From: Scenedesmus sp. PABB004 | Taxonomy: Eukaryota | Direction: 5' to 3' | DNA: 64,000 nt | Assembly: GCA_014905635.1 (NCBI GenBank) | Contig: JABVCE010000008.1 | Span: 1,240,001-1,304,000, forward strand | Part shown: positions 10,730 to 64,000 of the stretch, one piece after another | How the letters are laid out: every line of letters begins with the position of its first letter | Numbering within the stretch: the stretch's first letter is position 1 | Translations under genes and position numbers: made by a program | Notes under the pieces: generated by a model | Database searches by the model: none | What the model was told of the DNA's origin: nothing | What the model saw: the letters and a program-made list of their open reading frames with translations, nothing else

Positions 10730-10748
10730 GTTCGCGCCGGAGTGCCAT

Positions 10749-10819
10749 GCTGCGCTCGTATAGTGGTAGTATAACTGCCTTCCAAGCAGTCGGCCTGGGT
10801 TCGATTCCCAGGCGCAGCA
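10749..10819 (+). tRNA. tRNA-Gly(TCC)
   Basis: Acceptor stem GCTGCGC/GCGCAGC plus discriminator A; A-box in D-loop (TAGTGGTA); anticodon arm ACTGC-CT-TCC-AA-GCAGT; T-arm CTGGG-TTCGATT-CCCAG; 71 nt, no intron. Confidence 0.95.
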
Positions 10820-10856
10820 ACCTTATGCTCCCGCCAACAACGCTGGCGACGCCGGG

Positions 10857-37694: not shown

Positions 37695-37705
37695 CACCCA
37701 GCGCT

Positions 37706-38538
37706 GGCGGAGCGGGGCGCCGGCGGCTAGCCGAGATGCCCGGAGCACGCCCCCCCCCCCCCCCCCCCCGGCCGCCGCGCCCGCGGGCTGCTGGCAGGGT
37801 GACCCTGCCGCGACCGCCAGGTGGCACGTCACCAGGCGGCGGCCGGGCGCTGTGCTGCTCGAGGCGCCGCCGCCGCGCCGGCGTGGGGCGCGCGCCAGGC
37901 GCCGGCCCGGGCGGCGGGCGCCGCCTGCGACGGCGCCCAGCCAGCTTGCGGCGGTGGGCGGCGGGCGCCCAGGCTTTATTTCTGTTATGGAAGCGAATCC
38001 GGCCCGGCGTGCCTTGCCGCGCCCGCCTCGGCCGCAACACGCAGCGCGCACGCGGGCCGCGCGACGCACACGCCGCGCACGCCACGCACGCCGGAGAGGG
38101 CACGCCCTCCCACGCGGACCGAGGCGCGCGCGCCAGGACGCAGCGCGCGATGTGGGGCCGCGGCACGCGCTCCCTGGACCTGCGGCACAGCCCCTTTGAC
38201 GCCGCGGAGCGCCGGCGCAGCGCGGAGCTGGGCCGCAGGTGCGAGCGGGCAGCGGCCGCCCGGCGCGCCGCGGGCGCCGCACGGCCCCTGCTGCGCGGCC
38301 CAGCGCGCGGCGGCCCAGCGCCGCACCGCCGGTGCGGGGCGACGGCGAGCTGGGCGCCGGGCGCGCTGGCCGGCGCCAGTATCGGCATGGCCCAGCAAAA
38401 TCTGGCGCCCCCCCCCCCCCCGCGGCCGCCGACCGCCCGGCGCGCCCGCTCCCGCAGCACGCGCCGCTACGATGAGCACTGGGGCGCCGCGGAGCGCGCG
38501 GACACGCGCCTTAAGTGCGGGGACGGCGCGGTGCACCA
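37706..38538. repeat. Inverted duplication 1, arm B
   Basis: Reverse complement of 27708-28525; starts about 12 nt after the EAPP stop. Confidence 0.92.
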
Positions 38539-48363: not shown

Positions 48364-49272
48364 CGGCCGCGCGAGCGAGTCACCGCCGTCGCGGCGGACC
48401 GCGCGCCGCCGCTGCGCGGAGGCGAGGCGACCTGCGGCGCGTCGGCGTGCGGCGCGTCTGAGTCAGGCGCACGTCTGGGCGGCGCGCCGCGCGTCGGGGC
48501 GGTGGCGGGCGACGGGTTCGCCCGCGAGATGGGCGCGTGCGTCACGGCTGCCGCTGCCGCCCGCGGCGCTGCCGTGCGGGCGCAGCGGCGCGCTGACGCG
48601 CCGGCCATCGCGAGCGCGGCGCCGGGTCCGCGCGTGCCGCCCGCGGGGCGCCGCGGCGAGTTGGCCGGGCGCCCCTGGCGCAGCGCCGCGGCCGCACGCC
48701 GCCAGCAACCGCCCCTCGCGACGGCCGGGCCCGGCGGTGATCGTTCGTGCCGGTCCGCGCCCCTCGCGACGGCCGTGGCGGGTGGGCGCGCGCGATGGGC
48801 GCCCAACCTGCGCCTCCGCGCGCCCGGCGCACCTGCGCTGCCGGCACTCCGGTCGGGCCGCTCCGGGCGCGAACAAAGGCGTGCCGAAAAGGCCGGCGGG
48901 CGCGCGCGGACGGCCGATTTAGGTGGTGTCGGTGCTCGAGCTGCCGTGGCAAGGTCGGCGCGGTCGGTCCAGCGCGTGCCTCGTTGCCTGTCTGGCGCGC
49001 ACAGAGAGCGAGAGCGCGATTGGCGGGTCGCCCTGGCGGACCGGCGGTGAACCGCCGACAGAGTCGTCACCGGCGCGCGCCGCTGCTGCGCATCACCCCG
49101 CGGCCGACGCCGCCGGCGCATGGCGCCCGTGCAGCAGCCAGCGGGCGCCACAGCACGCCGCACGTGAGGCGCACCGCGCGCCGCGCCGCCGCCGCCGCCC
49201 GCGGCGGGGGCCGCGCCCCCGCCCGCGCGCCAGGCTGGCGCCCGCGCGCCGCTGCCGCCGCCGCGGCGGTGG

Positions 49273-50443
49273 TCACTCCATGACGCTGATGAGGTCCCTG
49301 AACGCCTCCTGGTCGAGCACGACGTCCACGAGCGCGCCCGCGTCGTCGCGCGCGGTGAGGCGCGCCATCGTGTCCTCCCACGCGCCGTCCCCAAAGAGCG
49401 CCATGACCACGTAGTCGTCCGTCAGGTCAACCTGGGCGTGGGTGTGCGTGGGTGGGTGGGTGGGTGGGTGGGAGGCAGGCGGGCAGGGACGGCGGGGGGG
49501 GGGGGGGCATGACGGCGGCGCCACGCGCGGTGCGCGCGCGGCGCGCAGCGTGTGTGCGTCGGGCAGCGTGCGGTGTGTGCGCGGCGTGTGCGCCGCGCCT
49601 GCTGTATGTTGTTGAGCGTGATGTAGTACACGTAGCCGTCCTTGTCCCGCAGCAGCACCGTGCCCGGGACCTTGGCGTCCAGCCGCACCTGCGGGGGCGG
49701 CGCGCGGGCGCCGTGCGGGCGGGCGGCGCGTCCGCGCCCGCTGCGGCGTGGCACCGCGCCTGCTGCGGTGCGTGGTGCTGCGCAAGCTGCGGTGCAGCGC
49801 CGGTGCAGCGCCGCGCGCCTCGACGGGGTCGCCCGCGCGCGAGAGCAGCTGCACGTGGCCGTCGTAGCCGCGCCGGAAGCCGCCCTCGTCGCGCAGCGCG
49901 TCGATGCTGGCCCGCTCGCGCGCGTCCAGCGCGCCGTCGCCGGCGCCGCCGCCGCGCAGCAGCGCGGCGGCGCCCGCGACCGCGGCGGCCGCGCCGCCGG
50001 CGTACAGCAGCACGCTGCGGCGGCCCTGGTGTGGGTGTGGGCGAGCGGCGCGAGCGGCGCGAGCGGCGCTGGGCATGGCCGCTGCGGCCGCTGGGCCGCG
50101 CGCGGCGAGGAGGCAGCGCCCCGCACCTGCTGCTGCTGCGGCGGCGGCGGGGGCGGCGGCGGCGGAGGCGGCGGCGGCGGCGCGACCTGCGGGGGCGGCT
50201 GGCGTGAGGGCCCGTTCGGCGGTGCCGTGCTGCACGCTTCACGCGTCGCGGTCTCCACACCTGCGGGTCGTTGTAGACGCTCGAGCGCGCGCTGCGCCCG
50301 CGCCGCCCGCCGCTGCCGCTGCTGCTCCCGACGCGCCAGGGGACGGGCTGCGGCTGAGCGGGCCGCGACAGGCTGCTCGTCGGGTGGGTCACACCAGGCG
50401 CCAGCGCGCGGGCCAGCCGCGCCTCAGCGAGCGCGGCGGCCAT
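49273..50443 (-). CDS. Unknown, probably plastid/thylakoid-targeted protein
   Basis: MAAALAEARL...VYNDPQ|VAPPP..QQQQ|GRRSVLLYAGGAAAAVAGAAALL...|VRLDAKVPGTVLLRDKDGYVYYITLNNIQQ|VDLTDDYVVMALFGDGAWE...LISVME*. Confidence 0.75.
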
Positions 50444-50509
50444 CGCGCCGCGCTGGCGGCGGCGGCTGGCGCGGCGCGTGCAGCGCGTGTGCTGCCGGCT
50501 GTCGGCGCG
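49958..50509. repeat. Inverted duplication 2, arm A (5' UTR, transit-peptide exons and two introns)
   Basis: Reverse complement of 62563-63138 with few substitutions and indels. Confidence 0.92.
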
Positions 50510-50784
50510 ACGCGACCACGGAGATCGCGGAGGCTGGTGGTGTGGCGTGATCGCGTGGCAGCACGGGAGGGAGAGCGACCGCCGCCGCTGAGACGCCGCT
50601 GAGACGCGGCCGCCCGGCTCCCGCTGCTCTGCGCGCCCCGTGACAGCGGCAGTCGATTCCAGCACGGTGGCGCGCGTTGACAGCGAGCGGCCCTGCCTCA
50701 GCAGGCGGCGGCTGCGCCAGCAGCGGCACCGGCAGCGGCGGCCGCCGCGCGGCGCAGCCCCCTTCCTCTCCCGGCCCCCGCGCC

Positions 50785-51597
50785 ATGGCAGCACTGTCGG
50801 GATGGCGCCAACCCGGCGCCGCGGGCGAGGGCGCCGCTAGCCGCGCGCCGCGGGGCCGCTCGCTCGTCGCCGCTGCTGCTGCGCGCCGCAAGCTCTTCTC
50901 GGTGAGCCGCTGTGCCGCCGCGGCCGCGCCAGCCGCCGCCCGCCCACCGCCTGACGCGCTGCCGCCGCTGCTGTCCGCCGCCGCTGCGGCCGCCGCCGCC
51001 GCTGCCAGGACGGCGCGCCGCAGCCACAGGACGACGCGCCGCGCGCGCCGCCGGCGCCGGCGCCGCGCGGCGGGGGCGCGGGCGCGGGCGAGGGCGGCAT
51101 GGCGGCGGCCAAGGCGGCGCTCGCGGCGGCGGCGGCGCGGCGGAAGAAGGCCAAGCTCGACGCGCAGCTCGCGCGCATGGAGCTCCTCGCGCGCAGCGGC
51201 GGCCTGGGGCCCGGCATCTTGCAGGAAGCGCTGCGCAGCCAGGCGCAGCGCGGCGCGCTCGCGGACGCGGCCGACATCGTGGCGGCCTCGCCGCCCGCGC
51301 TCTCGCGGGCAATCCCCGACCTCGACAGCGACTGGGCCGAGGCGGAGGGCGCCGGCGGCGCCGCCGCCGCGCGCACGACGACCGGCCGCGCCAAGGCGGC
51401 GGCCGCGGCGGCGGGCGAGGACGCGCTGCGCCTGGTGCGGCCCGCGACGCGCCCCCAGGTGCGGTGGGAGGGGGGGGCAGCAGGCGCGGCGCGGCGGCAG
51501 GCGTCCCCGACCCCGGCCCCGCGGCGGCGCTCGGATGCGGCGGCCCGCCTGCCCTGCGGCGCGCAGGGCTCGCTGTTTGGGGCGCTGGGCGGCGCGT

Positions 51598-51629
<32 letters not shown>

Positions 51630-52582
51630 TGGAGCGACATCCTGGACGGCGGCGGGGCGTGGGGCCAGGACGACGACTGGCCCGCCGGCGGCGGCGGCGG
51701 CGCAGCGGAGGAGGCCGACCCCGGCGCGGCGCTGCGCGAGCAGCTCGGCACGCCGGCGTTCCGCGCGTGGCTGCAGCAGGAGGAGGCGCGCAAGGCCGCG
51801 GCAGAGGCCAAGCGAGCAAGGCTCGCGCAGCTGTCCGCGGCGGCGGCGGCCGCGGCCGCGGCGCCCGCATTTGCGCGCACGGAGCGCCGGCAGCAGGCGG
51901 CGGAGCTCTCGGGCCTGCAGGCGCGCCTGGCCGGCGCGGCGCCACCGCGCCGCCCGCCGCCCGGGGCGGGCCCTGTGGACGACGAGGAGGGGGACGACGA
52001 CGACGTCCCACCGGAGCTGCGCCGGCGCAGCGACGTGGGGCTGACCCCCGCTGAGATGGCCGCGCTGCTGCGCGAGGCGGGCGGCGGCGCGGGCGGCGGC
52101 GGCCCGCGTGGGCGCGCCCTGGGCGCGCCGACGCTGCAGCCCTCGCGGTATGACGCCGCCGGCCGCGCGGCGGCGGGCGCGCTGGCGGCCGCGACGGCGG
52201 CGGGGCAGCTCAACTCGCCGCTGCTCGTGCGGCCGGCGGTGAAGCCGCTGGGCGGCGTGGCGGGGCTGCCGGAGACCGAGCGCCAGACCTTCTTTGATGC
52301 CGAGGACGCGGCGGCGGCGGCGGCGGCGCGCAAGGAGGCGGAGCGGCGGGCGCTCATCGCACAGCTGGCGGCCGAGGCGGCGGCGCAGCGCGGGCAGCAG
52401 CAGCAGTCGCAGCAGCAGCGGCGGCAGCCAAGCGGGCCGGCAGCGGGCGGGTTGGACGGCGCAGCTGGCGCCGCGGCCGCCAAGCGCATGGCTGCGGCGC
52501 TGTCCAACCTGGGCCTGTCGCGGCCCACCCGGCCGGGCGCGGCGCAGGCAGCGTCGCCACCGGCGCAGCAGCAGCAGCAGCC

Positions 52583-52651
<69 letters not shown>

Positions 52652-55126
52652 GGCGGCCAGTGCGGCAGGCCTGCAGAGGCCGGAGCTGCCCAGCGCCGTG
52701 GTCGACGGTGACGAGTCAGATTGGGCGGACGACGACGGCGGCGCCGCGGCCGCGGCGGCGGCCGAGGAGGCGGAGCGGCGGGCGCTCATCGCGGCGCTGG
52801 CGGCCGAGGCCGCGGTACGCAAGGGCACGCCGCAGGCGGCGCCCGGCGCCAGGGCCAGGGCAGAGGGGCCGCCAGCATTTGGCGGCGCGGCCGCGGCCGC
52901 CGCACAGCGCATCGAGGCCGCCGCGTCCAAGCTGGGGCTCTCGGCCCCGCCGCCTCGGCCGGGCGCGCCAGCTGGCGGTGTCGAGGCCACCGCGCCGCCG
53001 GGCAAGGGCGCGGCCGCGCTGGCGCCGGGTACGGCAGCGAGGGCTGCGGGCGCGTCCAAGGCTGCGCGGCAGGCCGCCGTGCCCCCACCAGAAGCATCGG
53101 CGCAGGCTGTCGCGGCTGCGGCCAAGATCGCGGCGGCCACGGCCAACCTCGGGCTGCAGCGCCCGCCGGCGCTCCAGCAGCGGCCCCAAGGCGACGAGCA
53201 GCGGGGGGCACCGAGGCAGGCGGGCAGGAAGAACGGCGGCAAGCAGCAGCTGAAGCAGCAGCTGAAGCAGCAGCCGGTCCAGCAGGCGCAGCAGCTGGCG
53301 CAGCAGCTGGTGCAGCAGCCGGCGCAGCAGGCGCAGCAGGCGCAGCGCAAGCAGAATGCCGCGGAGCAGCAGCTGGAGCAGGCGGCAGACGTGGAGGCGA
53401 GCAGGGCGGCGGCGGCAGCGGCCGCCGCCGCCAAGCTGCAGGCCCTGTCCGCCGCAGCCTCCAGCGGCGCGGCAGGCGTGGCGGCTGCGCAGCGCCCCAG
53501 CCCGGCGCCGGCGCTGCCCCGCGGGGGCGCCGCGCCGCCAAAGAAGCCGGGCCGGCTGCAGATGGCGCGGCAGCCGGCGGCCGAGGCGCAGCGCGGCCAG
53601 GTGGCCGCGGTCGTCCCTGCGGCGCCGGCCGCGAGCGGCGGCCGGGGCGCGGCGAGCGAGCCGCGCGCGAGCGAGCCGGCCCGCGGCGGCGGCGCCGGCG
53701 GGCAGCTGCCGCGCACGGTGTCGGGCGAGCGGCTCGCGCTGGCGGAGGCGCTGGAGGCCGCGCGCACGCCCACGCCCGCGGCTGTGATCGGGGTCGTTGC
53801 CGCGAGCGCGTGGCAGCGCGTCGCGCTGGTCGTGCGCCTCCCCGAGCTTGGCTGCAAGACGCTGCTGCCGCTCACGCAGCTCATGCCGAGCCAGCAAGTC
53901 GAGGTGCGTGCGGCGGGGCGCGGAGGGGAGCCGGGCCCGCGCGCGCCCGCGCGAGGCGGCGGCCCAGTCTGCGCGCGCCGACGACGCGCCCGCCCGCCCC
54001 CGCCGCTCGCGCAGCTGTTTGTCGCCGCCACAGAGCTGGCCGACGCCGCCGGCGTGGCCGACGCCGCCGGCGTGGCCGGCGCAGCCGGCGCGGCCGGCGG
54101 CGTCGCGGGCGCGCTGCTGCGGCGCGTGGGCCGCGCGGCGGCGGCAGCGCTGCTCGCGGAGGCCGGCCGCGGCTGGCGGGGGCGGGCATTACACGTGACA
54201 GTGGGGACGATGGAGCAGCCGCTGCACTTTGCGTTTGACCTCACCCGCCCCTCGGCGGCGCTGCGCCGCCGCCAGGCGCGCTGGGAGCAGCGCGAGGCCT
54301 TTGCCGCGGAGATGGCGCGGCTGGGGCTGGACCTGGGGCGGGGCGCGGCGGGGCAGGAGCAGGAGCGCTTTGTGCGCTGCGTCGCGGTGGCGGACGCCGC
54401 GCAGAGCCTGGAGAGCTGGCCCGCCACGAGCGGGGCCGCGGCGGCGCTGTGGGCGCGCCACGGCGGCGACGCCCCCGTCGGGGGCCGGGTGTTCCACGCG
54501 CAGGTGGGCCGAGCGGGGGCGACAAGGGGGGATGGGGGGTGGGAGGGATGGGGGCTTGCTGGCGGCCGCGCGAGCGGCGCTGCTCCCCGCAGGGCCCGCG
54601 CTGAGCCTGCTGAGCCCCTCTCGTGGCGCCGCCGTGGCCGCAGGTGGTTGGCGTCGACCGCGACGGCCGGCACCTGCTCGTGCAGGCGCCGCTCGTGACC
54701 GCGGCGGCGGCGGCCGGGGACGGCTGGCAGGCGGGCGCCGCGCTGGCGGTGCCGTGCGGCCTCGCGCCGGCTGCGGCGCAGCTCTACCAGCCCGCGCAGC
54801 AGCCCCGCTGGAAGGCGGAGCAGCTGCAGCAGGCGCTGGCCGACGCGGCGGCTCGCGGCGGGGACGCGGCGTGCGAGTGCCGCATGCGCGTGCTGGGTCT
54901 GCGGCATGCGCCATTCCTGAGCATCCCGCTGGAGCTGCTGGAGCCGGCGCAGCAGCCGCGCGGCGTGCCGGGCGGCGGCGACGGCGACGGCTCGCACGGC
55001 CTGCTGCGCGCGCGCCAGGCGCGCGCGCCGCCCCGCGCGGCGGCGGCGGGCCCGTCCGCTGTCTGGGCGCCTGCTGCGGCGCAGCTCGAGCTCGACGCGG
55101 TGCTGGGCGCGCTGGGCGCGCTGTAG
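50785..55126 (+). CDS. Large low-complexity protein (poly-D, poly-Q) with putative transit peptide and possible degenerate S1/OB-like C-terminal domains
   Basis: Exon 1 50785-50901 joins 51009 in frame. C-terminal beta-rich segments VIGVVAA..VALVVRLPELGCKTLLPLTQL and VFHAQ|VVGVDRDGRHLLVQ. Stop TAG 55126. The S1 call is tentative. Confidence 0.6.
52565..52650 (+). repeat. (CAG)n coding poly-Gln tract
   Basis: Read directly. Confidence 0.9.
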
Positions 55127-55139
55127 GTCGCTGGGCGCG

Positions 55140-55417
55140 GCCGGAGTGAGCCGGGCGAGCACGGCGACGGGTAGCAGCCTGCCGTGCCGGCGCCAAGGGG
55201 CCCCGCGTGTGCTCTCGGGGGGTTCGGCGATTAAAACCGGCGGAACGCGACTCTGTGGGAACGCCAAGCGTCGCGCTCCTTCAAAGGCCTCCGCCGTCTC
55301 CGCTTGCCGCCGCACCCGCCGTGACGCTGGGGACCGCGCGCGCACAGAGGGCACGCCACCGCGCAGCAACCGACGCCCGCCTCGCACTGCTGCCGCTGCT
55401 GCCGCCATGGCGGTCGC
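55140..55417 (+). repeat. Direct duplication 3, copy A (SLT promoter/5' UTR plus ATG GCG GTC GC)
   Basis: Near-identical to 57628-57921 apart from small indels. Confidence 0.93.
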
Positions 55418-55458
55418 GGCCAGCCTTGGTCTGGGCCACACGGGGTGGCGCGCGCTCG

Positions 55459-57393
55459 CTAGCCGCCCTTGTCGGCGGCGCGGCGCAGGCGGGCGGCGAG
55501 GGCTGAGCCGATGAAGATCTGTCCCAGCTGTCCGAGGATGCAGGGGATGGCGAGCAGGCCCTGCGCGGCACGGGGGGGCAGCGCGCGCGCGGAGGGGTCG
55601 GCCAGGGCCGGCGCCGGCGGGCGCAGCAGGCGCGGCGCAGCAGGTGCAGCGCAGCGCGCCGCCGCGCCCCGCGCGCGCCTGCGTTTTGAGGTCCGGGGTC
55701 AAGTAGCTGATCACCGTCACCGCCACGGGCGCGCTCTTCTGGCTTGACATGATGACCGTCGCGACGCCCTCGCGCAGCGGCAGGCGCAGCCCCCACACCG
55801 CGGCGGCGTTGAGCAGGAGCATCGCGACGTGCAGCGCCGCGCTCGCCAGCACCACGAGCAGCACCGCCGTGAAGGGCTGCTGCAGCAGCGTGCCGCGCGC
55901 CCCCGAGAGCGTCTGCCACACGATGCACGCGAGGTTGAGCGTGCTGAACAGGGACAACGGCGTGCGGAACCGCGTGACAAAGGCGCGCACGCGCGCGCTG
56001 GCCTCGCGCGCCGCCTTGCCCAGGACCGACGGCACCAGCACCGTAATCAGCAGCTTCACCACCAGGTTGGCCGGGTCCACGCTCACGCTGCTCCCCCCCG
56101 CCGCCGTGCTCAGCACCAGGCGCAGCTCGTACGGCACTGCGGGGCGGTGGCGGCGGCCGTGGCGCGCGCGCGCGCGCGCGCGCGAGCGCGCGGGCGGCCG
56201 CGGCGTCGGCGGGGGGCCGCGCGGCGCCCGCGCAGCGCCGGCGTGCCCCGCGCGGGGCTCGCGCCGCGTGGCGCCCGTGGCGCGGCGCCCGGGCGCACCC
56301 GTGACGATACCCAGCAGGTTGGTCGCGACCGTCAGCAGCAGCGCCAGCGCCTGGTTGCCCTTGGCCGCGGCGGTCAGCGCGACGCCCACGCCCAGCCTGC
56401 GCGCGTGCGCGGGTGGGGCGCAGGGCGTCGCGCGCTGCGCCGCACGCTGCGCCGCGCCGCTCGTGGCACTCGCGGCGCCGGCGCGGCGCTGGCGCGGGCG
56501 CTCGTGGCACTCGCGGCGCCGCTGGCTCACGTCGTGGGCACGACGCAGAAGATGGCCAGCCCCACCGCAAACTCGTGTGGCGTGAGCGGCAGGCGCAGCA
56601 CGGCAAAGCCAAAGCAGGGCGTGACGGCGAGGATCGCAAAAAGGCCGTACGACATGCTCACCAGGCCGCGCCCGCGCAGCAGCGCCCTGCGGCGGCGGCG
56701 CGCGGGCGGGCGGGCCCGTGTGCGGGCGGCCGCCGCCGCGCGCCCGGCGGCTGCCGCGCCTGGCGCCGCTCCGCCGCGCTGCGCGCTGCCGCCGCGGCCG
56801 CCGCCCGCCCCGGTCCCTGCTGCTGCGCCCCGCAGCGGCCGCGCCCCGCAGCGGCCGCGCGCGCGCCTGAAGTCGTCCGACTTGAGCGTGAGGCCAGAGA
56901 TGAGGAAGACCACAAAGTTGTTGACCGCCTGCACGACGCGCACGTCGCCGACCGACAGGCTCGCGACCGCGACGCCCGGCACGGGCCACGCGAGCGCGAG
57001 GCCCGCCGCGGCGGTGAAGCTGAGGAGCATGAAGTGCTCGACCACAAACGCGCGCACGCGCGCGGCGCTCGGCGCGCGCGGCGCCCAGCGCCGCCGCGCG
57101 GCGGGCTGCGGACCGGCGCCGGGCGGACCGCCGCCGGCCGCGTTGTTCGCGGCCGCCTCGTCGCCCGGCGACGACGGCGGGCCCGCCATCTCCAGCGCCA
57201 GCGCGGCCGGGGCGTCGCGCTGCTGCTGCTGCTGCTGGTGCTGCTGCTGGTGCTGGTGCCCCTCAGCGTCGTCGTTGAGCGGCAGCAGACCGCCGCCTGT
57301 GGAGCGCGCCGCGTCCGGCGGCAGCATCGGGGACGCCGACTTGTTCTCCGCCTCCGCCTCCTCCGGCTGCTGCTGCTGGTGCCGGTGCGGCAT
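55459..57393 (-). CDS. Sodium/metabolite (bile acid:Na+ symporter family) cotransporter, BASS4-like
   Basis: EHFMLLSF..GLALAWPVPG, VFLISGLTLKSDD, EFAVGLAIFCVVPTT|LGVGVALTAAAKGN, SSQKSAPVAVTVI, GLLAIPCILGQLGQIFIGS. Confidence 0.88.
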
Positions 57394-57627
57394 GGCGCGC
57401 GCTGCGGGCGACGAGCCCGCGGGGCGACGCCGCGCCGACGCCGCGCCGCGGCGCGCCGCTGCTGCCGCGGCCGCCGCGGCCGGCGCGCGGAGGCCTGTCG
57501 CCCGCGGGGCGCGCCCCACGTAGAGCGACAGCTGCGCGAGGTGCTCCAGCGGTCCCTCGACGAGGCGCCCCCCGGCAGCGTGAAGGAGCAGCGCGAGATG
57601 GCGGTCGGCCACGGCTGCGAGGGCGCT

Positions 57628-57921
57628 GCCGGAGTGAGCCGGGCGAGCACGGCGACGGGTAGCAGCCCGCCGGCTGTCGCGCCCCGACGGCGTGCCGGCG
57701 CCAAGGGGCCCCGCGTGTGCTCGGGGGGTTCGGCGATTAAAACCGGCGGAACGCGACTCTGTGGGAACGCCAAGCGTCGCGCTCCTTCAAAGGCCTCCGC
57801 CGTCTCCGCTTGCCGCCGCACCCGCCGTGACACTGGGGACCGCGCGCACAGAGGGCACGCCACCGCGCAGCAACCGACGCCCGCCTCGCACTGCTGCCGC
57901 TGCTGCCGCCATGGCGGTCGC
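57628..57921 (+). repeat. Direct duplication 3, copy B (the SLT promoter and start that lead into the intact gene)
   Basis: Matches 55140-55417 and runs into the SLT ATG at 57911. Confidence 0.93.
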
Positions 57922-60900
57922 CGCCGTCGCCCTGGGCTGGCAGGGCATCGTCGTGGCGGTGACGCTGGGCCTGAGGTGCGCGCGCCGGCCCGCCGCGCCC
58001 CCGGCGCGCGCGCGTTAGCGGGCGCGCTGCCTCGAGGTTGTTGGAGGCTCTGGCGCGCCGCCGGCGTTCCGCGGCCGTGCGCGCCCTGCATTGGGGCGCG
58101 AGGCGCGGTCCCATGCCATGCGCGCCGCGCGCCGCCGCCCTGCGCGCCCGCACGCGTGCGTCCTGGCACGCCGTTCGCCATCCGATGGCACGGCCGCCCG
58201 CCCCGCCCCGCCCCGCCCGCGCGCCCGCCCGCGCAGCCTCATCGTGATGGGCATGGACCTGGTGGGTCCGGACCTGGTCTTTGGCGGCCTCACCGCGCTC
58301 TACGTGACGAGCGGCATCATCAGCATCAAGGACGGCGCCGCCGGCTTCTCCAACACTGGCGTCCTCACCGTGCTCGTGCTCTACCTCGTCGCCGAGGGCG
58401 TGTCGCAGACCGGAGGTGCGCCGCGCGCCCCCCGCGCCGCGCCGCCCCCCGCGCCGCGCCTCGGGGCCCAGGCGCGCGCCGGCGGCGTCCCCGTTTGGCG
58501 CGCGCGCCCGACGCCCGCCACCCGCGCGCCGCCGCTGCCGCTGCTGCGCGCAGGCCTCGACCTGGCCATGAACTTCATGCTCGGCCGCGCCTCCACCGTG
58601 TTCTGGGCCCAGGTGCGCGCGCGCTGGGGCCGCAGCCCGCCGCCGCTGCGCGCCCGCGGCCCACCGCCCGCGCCGCGCGCCCGCCCCACCAGGTGCGCAT
58701 GATGATCCCCGTCATGGTCGCCTCCGCCTTCCTCAACAACACGCCTATTTGCGCTCTTATGATACCAATCTTGATCAGCTGGGGTCGTAGGCGCGTTTGG
58801 CGGCGGCGGGAGCGCGCGGGGGCGCGCGCCCCTGCCCCTGCCCCCGTGCACCGCGCCGCGCGCGCTCGCCGACCCCTGGCCCGCGTCCGCGCCCGCGCGT
58901 CCGCGCCCGCAGGTGCGGCATCAGCCCCAAGAAGCTGCTCATCCCCATGTCCTTTGCGACCGTGCTCGGCGGCACCGCGACGCTCATCGGCACGTCGACC
59001 AACCTCGTCGTCAGCGGGCTGCAGCAGGAGAAGTACGGTACGACCGACCCCTCCAAGGTCTTCCAGTTCTTCTCCATCACCCCCTACGGCGTGCCCTACG
59101 CCGTCTGGGGTGCGGCGCGCGCGCCGGCCGCCTGGCCCCGCGCCCTGCGCCGCCGCTCCCTCTGGCCCCGCCGCCGCCCCGCCGCCGCTGAACCCTGGTC
59201 CTCGCTGAACCCTGGTCCCCGCTGAACCCTGATGCTCCCCGCAGGCATGGCGTACATCATCCTGTTCAGCAAGTGGCTGCTCCCCGGCGACGAGGCGGCC
59301 GACGACCTCACCTCGGGCCTGCTCGTCACCGTCGGCTCGCCCCTCGCGGGCAAGACGGCCAAGGAGGGCGGCCTGCAGGGCAACAAGGTCGCGCTGACCG
59401 CCATCAGCCACGGCCACGCGACCGCCGTGCCCTACACCGCCGACACGCTCATCCACGAGGGCGACACCCTCTTCGTCACGGGTGCGCCCCCGCCGCGCCG
59501 CGCTGCGGGCCAGGGCCAGGGCCAGGGCCAGACCTCGGGCGCCCGCTCGCGGGCTCGGCCCGCGGCGCCGCTGACGCGCGCCCACGCCCGCGCCGCCGTG
59601 ACGCCGCGCCGCAGGCTCGGTGCACGCGGCGGAGCAGGTCGCGCGCGACTTCAAGCTCGTGCTCCTCACCAGCGACGACGACGCGGCGCGCAAGAGCAGC
59701 CCCGGCGTCAACCTGCTCTCCGCCGCCGCGACCGACGTGGAGGAGGGCTTCGACCTCGCCGCCACCGGCAACCCCAGCTCCAGCCTCGTCCAGGCGCGCG
59801 CGCCGCGCTGCGGGCCGCGCCGCAGGCCGCGCCGCAGGCCGCGCCGCAGGCCGCGCCGCAGGCCGCGCCGCAGGCCGCGCCGCAGGCCGCGCCGCAGGCC
59901 GCGCCGCAGGCCGCGCCGCAGGCCGCGCCGCAGGCCGCGCCGCAGGCCGCGCCGCAGGCCGCGCCGCGCGGCGGCCCGCCCGCGCGCGCCCCGCCTGCGC
60001 GCGGCGGCCGACGCGCGCCTCGCGCGCCCGCGGCGCAGGTGACGCTCAAGAAGGGCAGCCCCCTGATCGGCCAGTCCATCCGCGCGATCGGCTTCCGCGG
60101 CCGCTTCCAGGCCGCGGTGATCGCGGTGAAGCGGTCCAAGAACGTGCAGCCCGGCCGCATCGGCGACATCACGCTGCAGGCGCGCGACGTGCTCGTCCTC
60201 TCCACCGGCACGCGCTTCGACCGCACGTCGGAGGACGTGACGGCCAACTTTGAGAAGCTGCTCTACCTCGACGAGGCGCTCGCGCGCCAGTTCACGACCG
60301 CGGTGCGCGTCGGCAAGCGCAGCAAGGAGGCGGGGCGGTCGATCCAGGACGTCGGCCTGCGCGGCATCAACGGGCTCTTCCTGTTTGAGATCGAGCGCGC
60401 CGACGGGTCGCGCCTCAAGGCGGTCGACCACAACACGCTGCTCGAGGTCGGCGACGTGCTCTGGTTTGCGGGCGACCTCGACGGCGTGGCCTACCTGCAG
60501 AAGTACACCACGCTCGAGCACATGCAGGCGCGCTGCGCCCCGCGCGCGCACGCCCCGCACCCGCGCACCGCGCGCCCGCGCCCGCCGCCGCCGACCACCG
60601 CTGACCCCCGCTGACCCCCAAATCCGCCCCCGCCCCCGGCCGCCGCGCGCGCGCAGGCGGACCAGGTGGAGAAGCTCGAGAGCGACATCATCTACCGCCG
60701 CCTCGTGCAGGTCGTGGTGAGCCAGCACGTGCTGCCCGGCAAGCGGCTCAAGGACGTGCGCTTCCGCCACACCTACGGCGCGGCCGTGCTCGGCGTGCAC
60801 CGCGCGGGGCAGCCCGTCGCGGGCGACATCCGCGAGGTCCCGCTCAGGGCCGGCGACGTGCTCGTCGTCGAGGCGGGGCCCGAGTTCCTGCACAACTTCA

Positions 60901-62242
60901 AGAACAACCGCGCCTTCAGCCTCATCAGCGAGGTCCCCAACTCCAGCCCCATGAAGCGCTCCAAGATGTGGATCGGTGCACGCACTGCGGCGCTGCGCCG
61001 CGCGCCGCCGCTGCCGCGACGCTGCCGCGCCGCCCGCGCCGGCGCCCCCCGCCGGCGCCCGCCGCCGACGCGCCCCTTCCGCCGCCGCCCCGCGCGCGCA
61101 GCCCTGGCGCTGACCGTGGCGATGGTGACCACCCAGATCGTCGGCGGCGCCGTCGGCAAAGAGTGTGAGCCGCCCGCGCTCGCCTGCACGCCCGCGCGCG
61201 CCCGCGCGTGCCTGCGCGCCCGCGCGCGCGTGCGCGCTGCTCAGGCCCGGCCAGCTCACCTCCGCCCCCGCCGCCGCGTCCGCCGCCGGCGCGCGCAGTC
61301 ATCCACCTGTGGCCGTGCGCGATGCTGACGGCGGGGCTGATGCTCGCGTTCAAGTGCCTCTCCGCCGACCAGGCGCGCTCCGCGGTGGAGTGGGAGGTGT
61401 ACGTGTGCATCGCCTTTGCCTTTGCCGTCTCGACCGCCATGGAGAAGACCAAGCTCGCGCTCGCCATCGCCGAGCTCTTCGTCGCCCTCGGTGCGCGCGC
61501 GCGCGCCCGCGGCCCCGCGCGACCGCCACGCGCCGCGCGCCCGCCGCCCAGCGCGCCGCGCGACCGCCGCGCGCCCAGCGCCCGCTGCCGCGCGGCCGCC
61601 TCGCTCACCCCCGCGCCCCCGCGCCGTCCGCGCGCAGGCCGCGCGATCGGCGGGCAGGCCGCCGCGCTCGCGTGCGTGTACCTGGTGACCGCGCTGCTGA
61701 GCGAGCTGCTGACCAACAACGCCGCCGCGGCGATCATGTACCCCATCGCCTCGGCGGCGGCCGACCAGCTCGGCATCGGCGCCAACATCATGAGCGTCGC
61801 CGTCATGCTCGGCGGCAGCGCGGGCTGGATCCTCCCGTACTCCTACCAGTGCAACCTCATGGTCTACGCGGCCGGCAAGTACCGCACCAAGGACTTTGTC
61901 AAGATCGGGACGCCCTTCCACGTGTGGCTCTTTGTCGGCGTCATCCTCATCCTCGGCAGCGGCGACCGCTGGCTGATCCCGGTCATCGCGAGCCTCGCGT
62001 TCACCGCCGCCGTCATCGCCGGCCCCGCGCTGTACGAGTACGCGCTCAGCGACCGCCAGAAGGCCGCCATCGCGGCGCGCCTCTCGCGCGGCGGTGGCGG
62101 CCGCAGCGGCGCCGGCGCGCGGCCGAAGCTCGCCAAGACGAGCGGCAGCGACCTCGGCAGCCTCGGCGTGCCCGCCGACGAGTTCAAGTCCACGGGCGCC
62201 AAGTACGACGGCATCGCCACGCCCGCCAGCCTCGGCCGCTGA
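57911..62242 (+). CDS. SLT: SAC1-like Na+/sulfate cotransporter (SLC13 family with TrkA-C domains)
   Basis: [53 protein letters not shown], several TrkA-C repeats, [40 protein letters not shown]. Confidence 0.93.
59814..59957 (+). repeat. (GCCGCGCCGCAG)x12 perfect tandem repeat within SLT intron 59794-60038
   Basis: Read directly. Confidence 0.95.
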
Positions 62243-62562
62243 AGGCAGAACCCAGACCCCCCCTCCCCCTGGCAGCGGGGGCAGATGCACCGTCGTGAGA
62301 GGCGCCGCGTCGCCTGACGCGCGCGCGAGGAAATTCAACCCACCATTTCAGCGCCGACTTTGTGGCCTGCTGTGCCCGGCGCGCACGTGTGCTAGTAGCT
62401 TCCAACCCATGCGCCGCTCCTGCTGCGGTTGCTCCGAGCGGCGGCGCGCAAGTCGCGCGACTGAGGTCGCGCGTGACTGTCGAGGAACCCTACCGTGCAT
62501 CCCGCTTGAAACCGCTACCACTGCTGCCCACCACCCCGCACACCACAGCCCCGGAGTCAGGC

Positions 62563-63138
62563 CGCGCCGACAGGCGGCAGCACACACACGCGCTGCACGC
62601 GCCGCGCCAGCCACCGCCGCCAGCGCGGCGCGATGGCCGCCGCGCTCGCTGAGGCGCGCCTGGCCCGCGCGCTGGCGCCTGGTGTGACCCACCCGACGAG
62701 CAGCCTGTCGCGGCCCGCTCAGCCGCAGCCCGTCCCCTGGCGCGGCGGGAGCAGCAGCAGCAGCAGCGGCGGGCTGCGGCGCGGGCGCAGCGCGCGCTCG
62801 AGCGTCTACAACGACCCGCAGGTGGGGAGACCGCGAGGCGTGAAGCGTGCAGCACGCCACCGCCGAGCGGGCCCTCACAGCCCCGCGGCCGGCCGCCGCC
62901 CCCGCAGGTCGCGCCGCCGCCGCCGCCGCCTCCGCCGCCGCCGCCCCCGCCGCCGCCGCAGCAGCAGCAGGTGCGGGCGCTGCCTCCTCGCCGCGCGCGG
63001 CCCAGCGGCCGCAGCGGCCATGCCCAGCGCCGCTCGCGCCGCTCGCGCCGCTCGCCCCCACCCACACCAGGGCCGCCGCAGCGTGCTGCTGTACGCCGGC
63101 GGCGCGGCCGCCGCGGTCGCGGGCGCCGCCGCGCTGCT
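62563..63138. repeat. Inverted duplication 2, arm B
   Basis: Reverse complement of 49958-50509. Confidence 0.92.
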
Positions 63139-64000
63139 CGCGGCGCCGTCGGCACGCGCGCACGTCGCCATCGAGCGTGTGCAGCAGCAGCGACCGGCGC
63201 TCCAGAGCCTGCAGTCTGCGACCGCCGGCTTTGACCCGCAGGCGGCCGCCGCGCGGCACGCGCCGCCCGTCCGCGGCGGCGGCGGCGGCGGCCGGCCGCC
63301 GTCGCCGGTCGCGGCTGCGGCCGCGGAGGCGCTCGCGCGGCTGCGCGCCGCGGAGGCCGCGGCCGCGGCGGGGCAGTACGACGCTGCCCTCGCAGCCTAC
63401 TCGGACGTCGTCGCGGCGCACGGCGACCTCGCGCTTGCCGAGTACGCGCGCCTGGGCCGGGCGCTCATGCTGTACGAGGTGCGGCTGCACGCGCGCCTGG
63501 CTGCAGCCGGGCGGGCGGGCGGGCTGCCCCGCGGCGCGCGCGGGGGAGCGGCGCGCGGGCGCGCGCGCGCACGCGGCCCGCGCCGTGAGCGCCCCGCCTC
63601 CGCGTCGCGCGCGCCCCTCGCCTCCCGCGCGCCGTGCAGGCGGGCGACACGAGCCAGGCGCTGATCGCGCTCGAGGACCAGGTGGGGCCCCGCAGCGCGG
63701 CAGCGCCCCGCAGCGGCCAGCGGCGGCAGCGCCCGGCGGCGGCACCACGCGGCGGCCACACCCACGCCGCCGACGCCGCCGCCGCCGCCGCCGCCGGCGC
63801 CGCGCAGGAGGTGAGCATGCGGGGCGCGCCCGAGGTGCACGCGGCGCTCGCGGCGATGCTCTACGCGGAGCGCCCGGGGCAGCGGCTGCGCGCGGAGCAG
63901 CAGTGGGACATCGCGCAGGAGTTTGACGTCAGGTACAGCGACCCTGCGTGGGTTCGCTCCGAGAGGCACTGGCCGCCGCGCCTGCTGGCGGCGCTGGAAG
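62633..64000 (+). CDS. TPR-repeat protein with bipartite twin-Arg thylakoid-lumen-type targeting signal; 3'-partial
   Basis: GRRSVLL + hydrophobic core + APSARA. TPR segments GQYDAALAAYSDVVAAHGDLALAEYARLGRALMLYE and PEVHAALAAMLY. C-terminal [22 protein letters not shown]. Confidence 0.82.

Follow-up and report, generated by a model that had tools for sequence, protein, structure and literature searches.

How can two unrelated genes come to begin with nearly the same targeting sequence? The question is raised by a 64,000-nt window of Scenedesmus sp. PABB004 (contig JABVCE010000008.1, C76 in our numbering, positions 1,240,001 to 1,304,000), that is, the whole stretch of DNA analysed, in which the 5' end of a minus-strand gene (gene A) is found again, inverted and about 12 kb away, at the start of a plus-strand gene for a TPR protein (gene B). 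The answer proposed here is that a recent local templated copy from gene A has probably replaced the 5' untranslated region (UTR) and nearly the whole presequence of gene B, introns included. The window has a GC content of 78-80%, short introns, many low-complexity runs and no N, and the nearest named homologues of its genes belong to Tetradesmus, Hariotina, Monoraphidium, and Raphidocelis. Searches of the own genome covered a 40 Mb assembly of 80 contigs.

The duplicated block and its two genes

Self-comparison and segment alignment place the block at 49958-50509 on the minus strand in gene A and at 62563-63138 on the plus strand in gene B. Both copies contain the 5' UTR (66-70 nt), exon 1, intron 1, exon 2, intron 2, and the first 68 nt of exon 3. 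In gene A, the ATG is at 50443, exon 1 at 50443-50261, and exon 2 at 50186-50127; in gene B, the ATG is at 62633, exon 1 at 62633-62821, and exon 2 at 62908-62970. The blastn self-comparison pairs 49944-50509 with 63151-62563 at 92.9% identity over 591 columns, gaps included, and in the gapped alignment the first bases are 50509/62563 and the last common base is 49958/63138. An earlier note on this DNA had described near-identical inverted copies with the same ends; the duplication is real at these positions and beyond chance.

The two arms differ by 10 substitutions in 549 aligned columns (1.8%). The 5' UTR carries two of them and one 4-nt indel, exon 1 three and two 3-nt indels, intron 1 four and a net length change of 12 nt, and intron 2 one and one 1-nt indel; exon 2 has a 3-nt indel and no substitution, and the shared part of exon 3 is free of substitutions. 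The exon indels are in frame, as the earlier note had said, but it had counted two (Ser, Pro) and there are three (Ser, Leu, Pro). Those of Ser and Pro sit in trinucleotide runs, where slippage stays in frame anyway. The shared introns are GT-AG introns in both genes, and all four shared splice sites are intact. Divergence amounts to 9/322 in the 5' half and 1/227 in the 3' half; this gradient is suggestive only (p=0.052) and was rejected as proof of a later gene conversion. The genome contains only two full copies, the second of them retrieved with E=4.7e-251, and the remaining 52 of the 54 matches are short, reach at most 80-94%, and fall nearly all on the poly-Pro/Gln part. A mobile repeat was rejected because of this copy number.

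Gene A (49273-50443, minus strand) has five exons and an open spliced frame of 232 aa, in a model that agrees with the orthologue proteins. Its introns 3 and 4 require GC donors (window 49818 and 49598, minus strand); GC donors seem to be present in neighbouring genes too. Its last exon, used as query, retrieves nine proteins, and by this homology gene A is a member of a chlorophyte family without a name. The family has no Pfam or NCBIfam match, no PDB match better than E=0.25, and no Atlas match, and a metagenome scan with one orthologue (P0167) gave no relative among 330 stretches. The AlphaFold2 model of gene A has a mean pLDDT of 38.8.

Gene B starts at 62633 and runs past the end of the window (64000) to a stop at the window-equivalent position 64020, 20 nt beyond it; the model has five exons and an open spliced frame of 304 aa. 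Homologues of the TPR protein occur in green algae and land plants (211 representatives; 84 proteins), with look-alikes also in cyanobacteria, so that by homology gene B is a conserved cyanobacterial-type TPR gene. Queried twice with TPR orthologues, the own genome showed a single locus for the family; the second search, with the Tetradesmus obliquus protein P0251, added one weak Gln-rich match (E=1.9e-5). Exon 3 of gene B alone found no homologue among 8000 candidates, whereas exon 5 and the alignment did find homologues; the TPR alignment had no match among PDB sequences, and a literature search under Cre01.g055151 found nothing. As the earlier note had said, the mature domains of gene A and the TPR gene are unrelated.

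Direction of copying and position of the join

The copying went, with high probability, from gene A to gene B, since the hydrophobic (H) stretch next to the twin arginine (RR) of the block follows the orthologues of gene A and not those of the TPR gene. Three gene A orthologues, P0007 (Monoraphidium minutum), P0167 (a member of the Tetradesmus deserticola cluster), and P0005, reach this stretch, and the 19-residue segment from LLYAGG is identical in them at 16/19, 17/19, and 15/19 positions, respectively. P0007 keeps the RR in place, in a model that is run together with an upstream gene and hides the true N-terminus. The orthologues cover the H stretch and none covers exons 1-2, which we infer to be native to gene A from the contiguity of the block. 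The H regions of six TPR orthologues are identical to each other at 0-9/19 positions and to that of gene B at 0-6/19. The alternatives that the TPR gene was the donor, or that the domain is ancestral to both genes, were rejected on the same evidence.

The join lies 68 nt into exon 3, within a Leu codon and in frame, and falls between the donor RR/H region and the cleavage region of gene B itself. By residue identity, the RR and hydrophobic region that gene B has from the donor, RRSVLLYAGG... to ...AALL, occupies 63074-63138 on the plus strand; just past the block, at 63139-63175 on the same strand, orthologue alignment places the native TPR cleavage region and mature start (APSARA/HVAIE, the slash standing for the predicted cleavage). 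Six full-length TPR orthologues were compared at the mature start, and all six have AxA followed by His/Arg and Val/Ile, the ARA/HV of gene B aligning with AAA/HV, AAA/RI, AIA/RI, and AHA/HI. For instance, P0251 reads PQSAAA/HVAID where gene B has PSARA/HVAIE: the two are close from the cleavage region onward and different upstream, where P0251 has a single Arg. The Raphidocelis protein P0016 (PAAA/RIATE) also aligns with the cleavage region of gene B. Because this region and the mature start match the TPR orthologues, the AxA is native to gene B and not part of the copied block.

From algae to land plants, the TPR orthologues are nuclear-genome proteins with N-terminal extensions, and by comparison with them gene B already had a presequence, so the event is a replacement and not a first acquisition. 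The earlier note had proposed the capture of a transit peptide with a thylakoid Tat signal and a junction inside the hydrophobic core; the AxA of the TPR protein would be cleavable, the other protein might stay anchored in the membrane, and orthologue N-termini were to be compared to find the donor. The homologues fit each of these points: the donor is gene A, the capture of the bipartite (stromal and twin-arginine) presequence is refined to a replacement, the junction is at the end of the core, the AxA aligns in all six orthologues and belongs to the TPR gene, and gene A has no conserved AxA.

In L099, a TPR gene from a metagenome, a single exon without introns extends from the ATG to the position of gene B intron 3. 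It is the sole locus from the metagenome TPR scan; its matches to the 272 kb around the window are TPR exons only, and its contig is non-syntenic. As L099 lacks an intron before that position, introns 1 and 2 of gene B came with the block, and the join lies inside an ancestral exon; in intron-mediated exon shuffling the join is in an intron, which is not the arrangement seen here. The spacer that separates the copied block from the stop codon of the TrkA-C transporter gene before it (62244-62562, plus strand) is unique in the genome and is presumably the native TPR promoter. Inspection by eye gave no recognisable remnant of the old TPR presequence upstream of either copy. A minus-strand open reading frame above gene A (from about 50787) was considered as such a remnant and rejected, because its ATG mirrors the CCATGG start of the neighbouring gene and it is acidic early.

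Predicted targeting of the two proteins

In gene A, the RR/H stretch probably stays in the mature protein as an uncleaved anchor of the twin-arginine translocation (Tat) type, in view of its strong conservation and of the Gly-rich linker behind it, which has no conserved AxA. A comparable H stretch stays in the mature Rieske protein. The donor exon of gene A has a weak match to the Tat signal of Pfam UCR_Fe-S_N (E=0.11, below the cut-off). Three paralogues of gene A are present, two in tandem near a contig end (L032, C76:1452300-1455100) and one on contig C3 (L033, C3:384600-385700); two of the three have RR-H-AxA signals and the third seems to lack an H region. The RR/H stretch, together with these paralogous signals, would give gene A a putative plastid location, and the family probably sits in or on thylakoids.

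The first 61 residues, counted on the gene A copy, include 10 Ala, 10 Ser, 8 Arg, 7 Pro, and 2 acidic residues; the composition would suit a stromal transit peptide, which is rich in Ala, Ser and Arg and poor in acidic residues, although a GC-rich genome tends towards it in any case. The RR-S-V-L-L at the beginning of gene B exon 3 puts the twin arginine just before the H region, whose best 18-residue mean hydropathy is 1.86, compared with 0.99-2.12 in nine orthologue N-termini. The N, H, and C domains of such signals suffice for pathway-specific targeting to the lumen, and exclusive Tat targeting requires RR and a suitable H domain, while Sec passengers are able to use either route, Tat included (PMC2132503). 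A basic residue near the cleavage site has been described for Tat signals (PMC6708511). Gene B combines the N and H parts of the donor with its own C region, which has a basic residue near the cleavage site. An in-frame ATG in intron 2 was rejected as the true start, as it leaves only 17 residues before the RR and a 1-nt indel lies upstream of it in the same intron; it may serve as a minor start.

Native RR signals are found in three Selenastraceae TPR orthologues, and those of T. obliquus, Chlamydomonas reinhardtii, and Botryococcus have no RR in the 30 residues before cleavage. This mixture indicates that the TPR family is labile in its route, so that the swap may or may not have changed it. 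Since P0251, the closest orthologue seen, has only one Arg before its H region, it can be conjectured, tentatively, that a single local copy had two effects: what was an uncleaved Tat membrane anchor in another protein became a lumen signal that can be cleaved off, and the TPR protein changed from the Sec route to that of Tat. This stronger proposal is doubtful.

Gene B is likely functional. Its terminal branch in a tree of the C-terminal core (20 rows) is 0.24, equal to the median of 0.24. Substitutions between the arms number 3/310 in coding and 7/239 in non-coding positions (Fisher p=0.11); with only three coding substitutions, dN/dS has no power.

Origin of the copy, rival explanations and known systems

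Short local duplications are a common background in this genome. A census of 872 kb, comprising the 272 kb around the window and three samples of 200 kb, gave 12 non-tandem pairs of at least 150 nt and at least 88% identity, after tandem-array rows and one between-region row were dropped: five in the 272 kb and three, four, and none in the samples. Two rows on C8 are probably one event. Nine of the 11 other pairs were inspected by eye and comprise an internal domain repeat, a retroelement end, paralogue pieces, and intergenic copies; no second clear presequence swap was found among these nine.

Some of these pairs are informative about mechanism. An inverted 97% duplicate (27708-28532/37702-38538) covers the spacer between a prenyltransferase beta gene and the gene downstream, together with the first exons of the latter. 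The copy at 37702-38538 is a dead-end 5' fragment located 8 nt after the stop of an EAPP gene, with a gene that by eye is Rieske-oxygenase-like beyond it. The gene downstream of the prenyltransferase beta gene is BTB-like by eye, with no Pfam match on the pieces tested. A direct duplicate (55133-55434/57621-57940), 97% identical in its core, carries the upstream region and ATG of the TrkA-C transporter gene. This transporter gene is SLT-like by eye, the two copies flank a minus-strand SBF-like transporter gene, and the left one begins 6 nt beyond the stop codon of the 50785-55127 gene. Just past the window on C76, 1307122-1308245 and 1311006-1312129 (L011:5122-6245 and L011:9006 to L012:129) are inverted copies, 99.2% identical, of a spacer that has a helicase gene on one side and a Tim10-family gene on the other. 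The tRNA-Phe(GAA) gene of this spacer is thereby present twice, and one copy of the spacer keeps both native flanks. A direct pair, and a pair of which one copy retains both native flanks, cannot stem from one inversion, which favours local copy-and-patch repair.

The following course of events can be envisaged. A break would have been repaired by template switching, or by gene-conversion-like patching, from gene A 12 kb away. Gene B would then be translated from the donor ATG and imported by means of the donor's stromal transit peptide; the thylakoid Tat translocase would engage it through the donor RR/H region, and cleavage after the native Ala-Arg-Ala would release it into the lumen, while the same stretch would be kept in gene A as a membrane anchor. 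The chimera may have survived because the swap was like-for-like and gene B had no backup copy.

A local patch is favoured somewhat over an inversion. The latter, a less probable but serious rival, would be a 12-kb inversion (50510-62562) in which one break, a staggered one, would have copied the gene A 5' end to the far breakpoint, and the TPR presequence would have been lost at the other; gene B would use the old upstream region of gene A, and gene A the old TPR promoter. The copies are inverted and non-repetitive, and their length of 550 nt is within the range (median 321 bp, maximum about 1.9 kb) reported for duplications that accompany inversions in Drosophila (PMC1885836); moreover, the pair at 27708-28532/37702-38538 is a second inverted one of the same kind. 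As in the breakpoint duplications of Ranz et al. 2007 (PMC1885836), short inverted copies of genic sequence lie at two sites of one chromosome, but here the copies alone are seen, and one copy forms an apparently working fusion. The inversion also needs the extra deletion, of which neither upstream region keeps a recognisable trace and for which P0251 finds nothing besides the one locus and the Gln-rich match, and two neighbouring duplications are not inversion products. The last 60 nt of the gene B spacer weakly resemble the upstream flank of the donor (p=0.004 against random windows, 0.026 against CA-rich ones), and this likeness of the two upstream flanks fits invasion by homeology.

It is improbable that the copy disabled or silenced the TPR gene, the in-frame join being luck and gene B a young pseudogene like the dead end at 37702-38538. 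Duplicates are common and at least one in the neighbourhood is truncated and a dead end, selection is not significant in the substitution counts, and at 1.8% divergence a dead gene could still appear intact. However, gene B is the only representative in this genome of a gene retained from algae through to land plants, the frame is kept across the join, which lies at the corresponding point of the signal, all three exon indels are of 3 nt whereas those of the UTR and intron 2 are of 4 and 1 nt, the shared splice sites are intact, and its branch is not long. An assembly artefact, either a mis-join or two haplotypes of the gene A 5' end, is scarcely credible. The GC of about 79% and the many low-complexity runs would invite one; yet 10 substitutions and 6-7 indels separate the copies, the flanks of each are unique, the window contains no N, the own-genome searches found no second TPR 5' end, and the frame runs on through the join, which sits at a biologically equivalent site. 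From one DNA run (X1, share 0.07), short pieces alone matched 48900-51000, and none of them spanned a junction.

Several observations weigh against a functional, templated replacement as presented here. Coding and non-coding rates are not significantly different, and of the three coding changes two alter the amino acid. The distance from RR to cleavage is 27 residues in gene B versus 21-24 in the three RR-bearing orthologues. Both gene A paralogues with an H region end in AxA, so that cleavage in gene A is possible. Downstream of the join, the two flanks are not significantly more alike than random windows of the genome (p=0.13). Finally, the 20-row tree leaves the position of gene B unsettled, and its orthology rests on the mature start and single-copy status.

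Recruitment of presequences by newly transferred organelle genes is known, for instance in rpl32 of Populus and the Malpighiales (from Cu-Zn SOD), rice rps11, and Passiflora rps7 in trx-m3, and the transit peptides of Euphorbia, Populus, and Passiflora are 59% identical (PMC8018952, PMC7488351). As in the rpl32-SOD type, the targeting exons of an existing nuclear gene, here a putatively plastid-targeted one, appear duplicated and fused to an unrelated mature domain. In contrast to it, gene B is not newly transferred but has long been nuclear and carried a presequence beforehand, its join is inside an exon and inside a lumen-targeting signal instead of at an intron, and the two genes are 12 kb apart and only 1.8% diverged, with UTR and introns still alignable. 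In plant genomes, transit peptides have been gained through alternative first exons or insertion of whole regions, and turnover of whole presequences between orthologues is reported to be frequent (PMC7456531); that survey scores gain and loss of predicted targeting in angiosperms, and its cited passages trace no named neighbouring donor or like-for-like replacement. Gene B also resembles the engineered lumen-targeting domains of Henry et al. 1997 (PMC2132503), in which the N/H part of one precursor and the C domain and passenger of another gave working signals, but it is natural and its donor N/H is probably an uncleaved anchor at home. No neighbour-donated replacement on an already targeted gene was found in the literature, which is weak evidence of absence, as titles and abstract starts were covered and most subscription papers were outside reach. 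The case can be regarded as a variant of known recruitment, what is new being a very recent swap in mid-signal on an already targeted gene.

Unrelated-looking transit peptides of orthologues are usually attributed to fast drift, while here a single-step replacement from a traceable neighbour is proposed. The pair would constitute a natural experiment: the RR/H region is identical in both, and the residues that follow the join are probably all that decides why one protein stays anchored and the other is set free. As the swap looks like-for-like, it may be biologically neutral. If the change from Sec to Tat were true, gene B would be the natural counterpart of the chimeras engineered from N/H plus C, and if local copying of 5' ends is frequent in this genome, it would be a working route for presequence turnover.

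Other features were observed in and around the window. The gene at 50785-55127 (plus strand), divergent from gene A across about 275 nt, is long and Gln/Ala-rich with a transit-peptide-like start, and one exon of it that was tested had no Pfam match. A tandem array of about 14 units of a 12-mer lies in an intron of a transporter gene (59797-59964), and a tRNA-Gly(TCC) at 10748-10822 (plus strand). On contig C1, an array of about 8.5 kb (2003777-2012272, L039-L040), with a 172-nt unit and 99% identity, adjoins retroelement-like sequence and is possibly centromeric or satellite DNA. On the same contig, 2028072-2032364 and 2037368-2038572 (L041-L042) contain an inverted, internally deleted copy of a gene that by eye is RING-type, in which the 5' exons are joined to the 3' repeat region.

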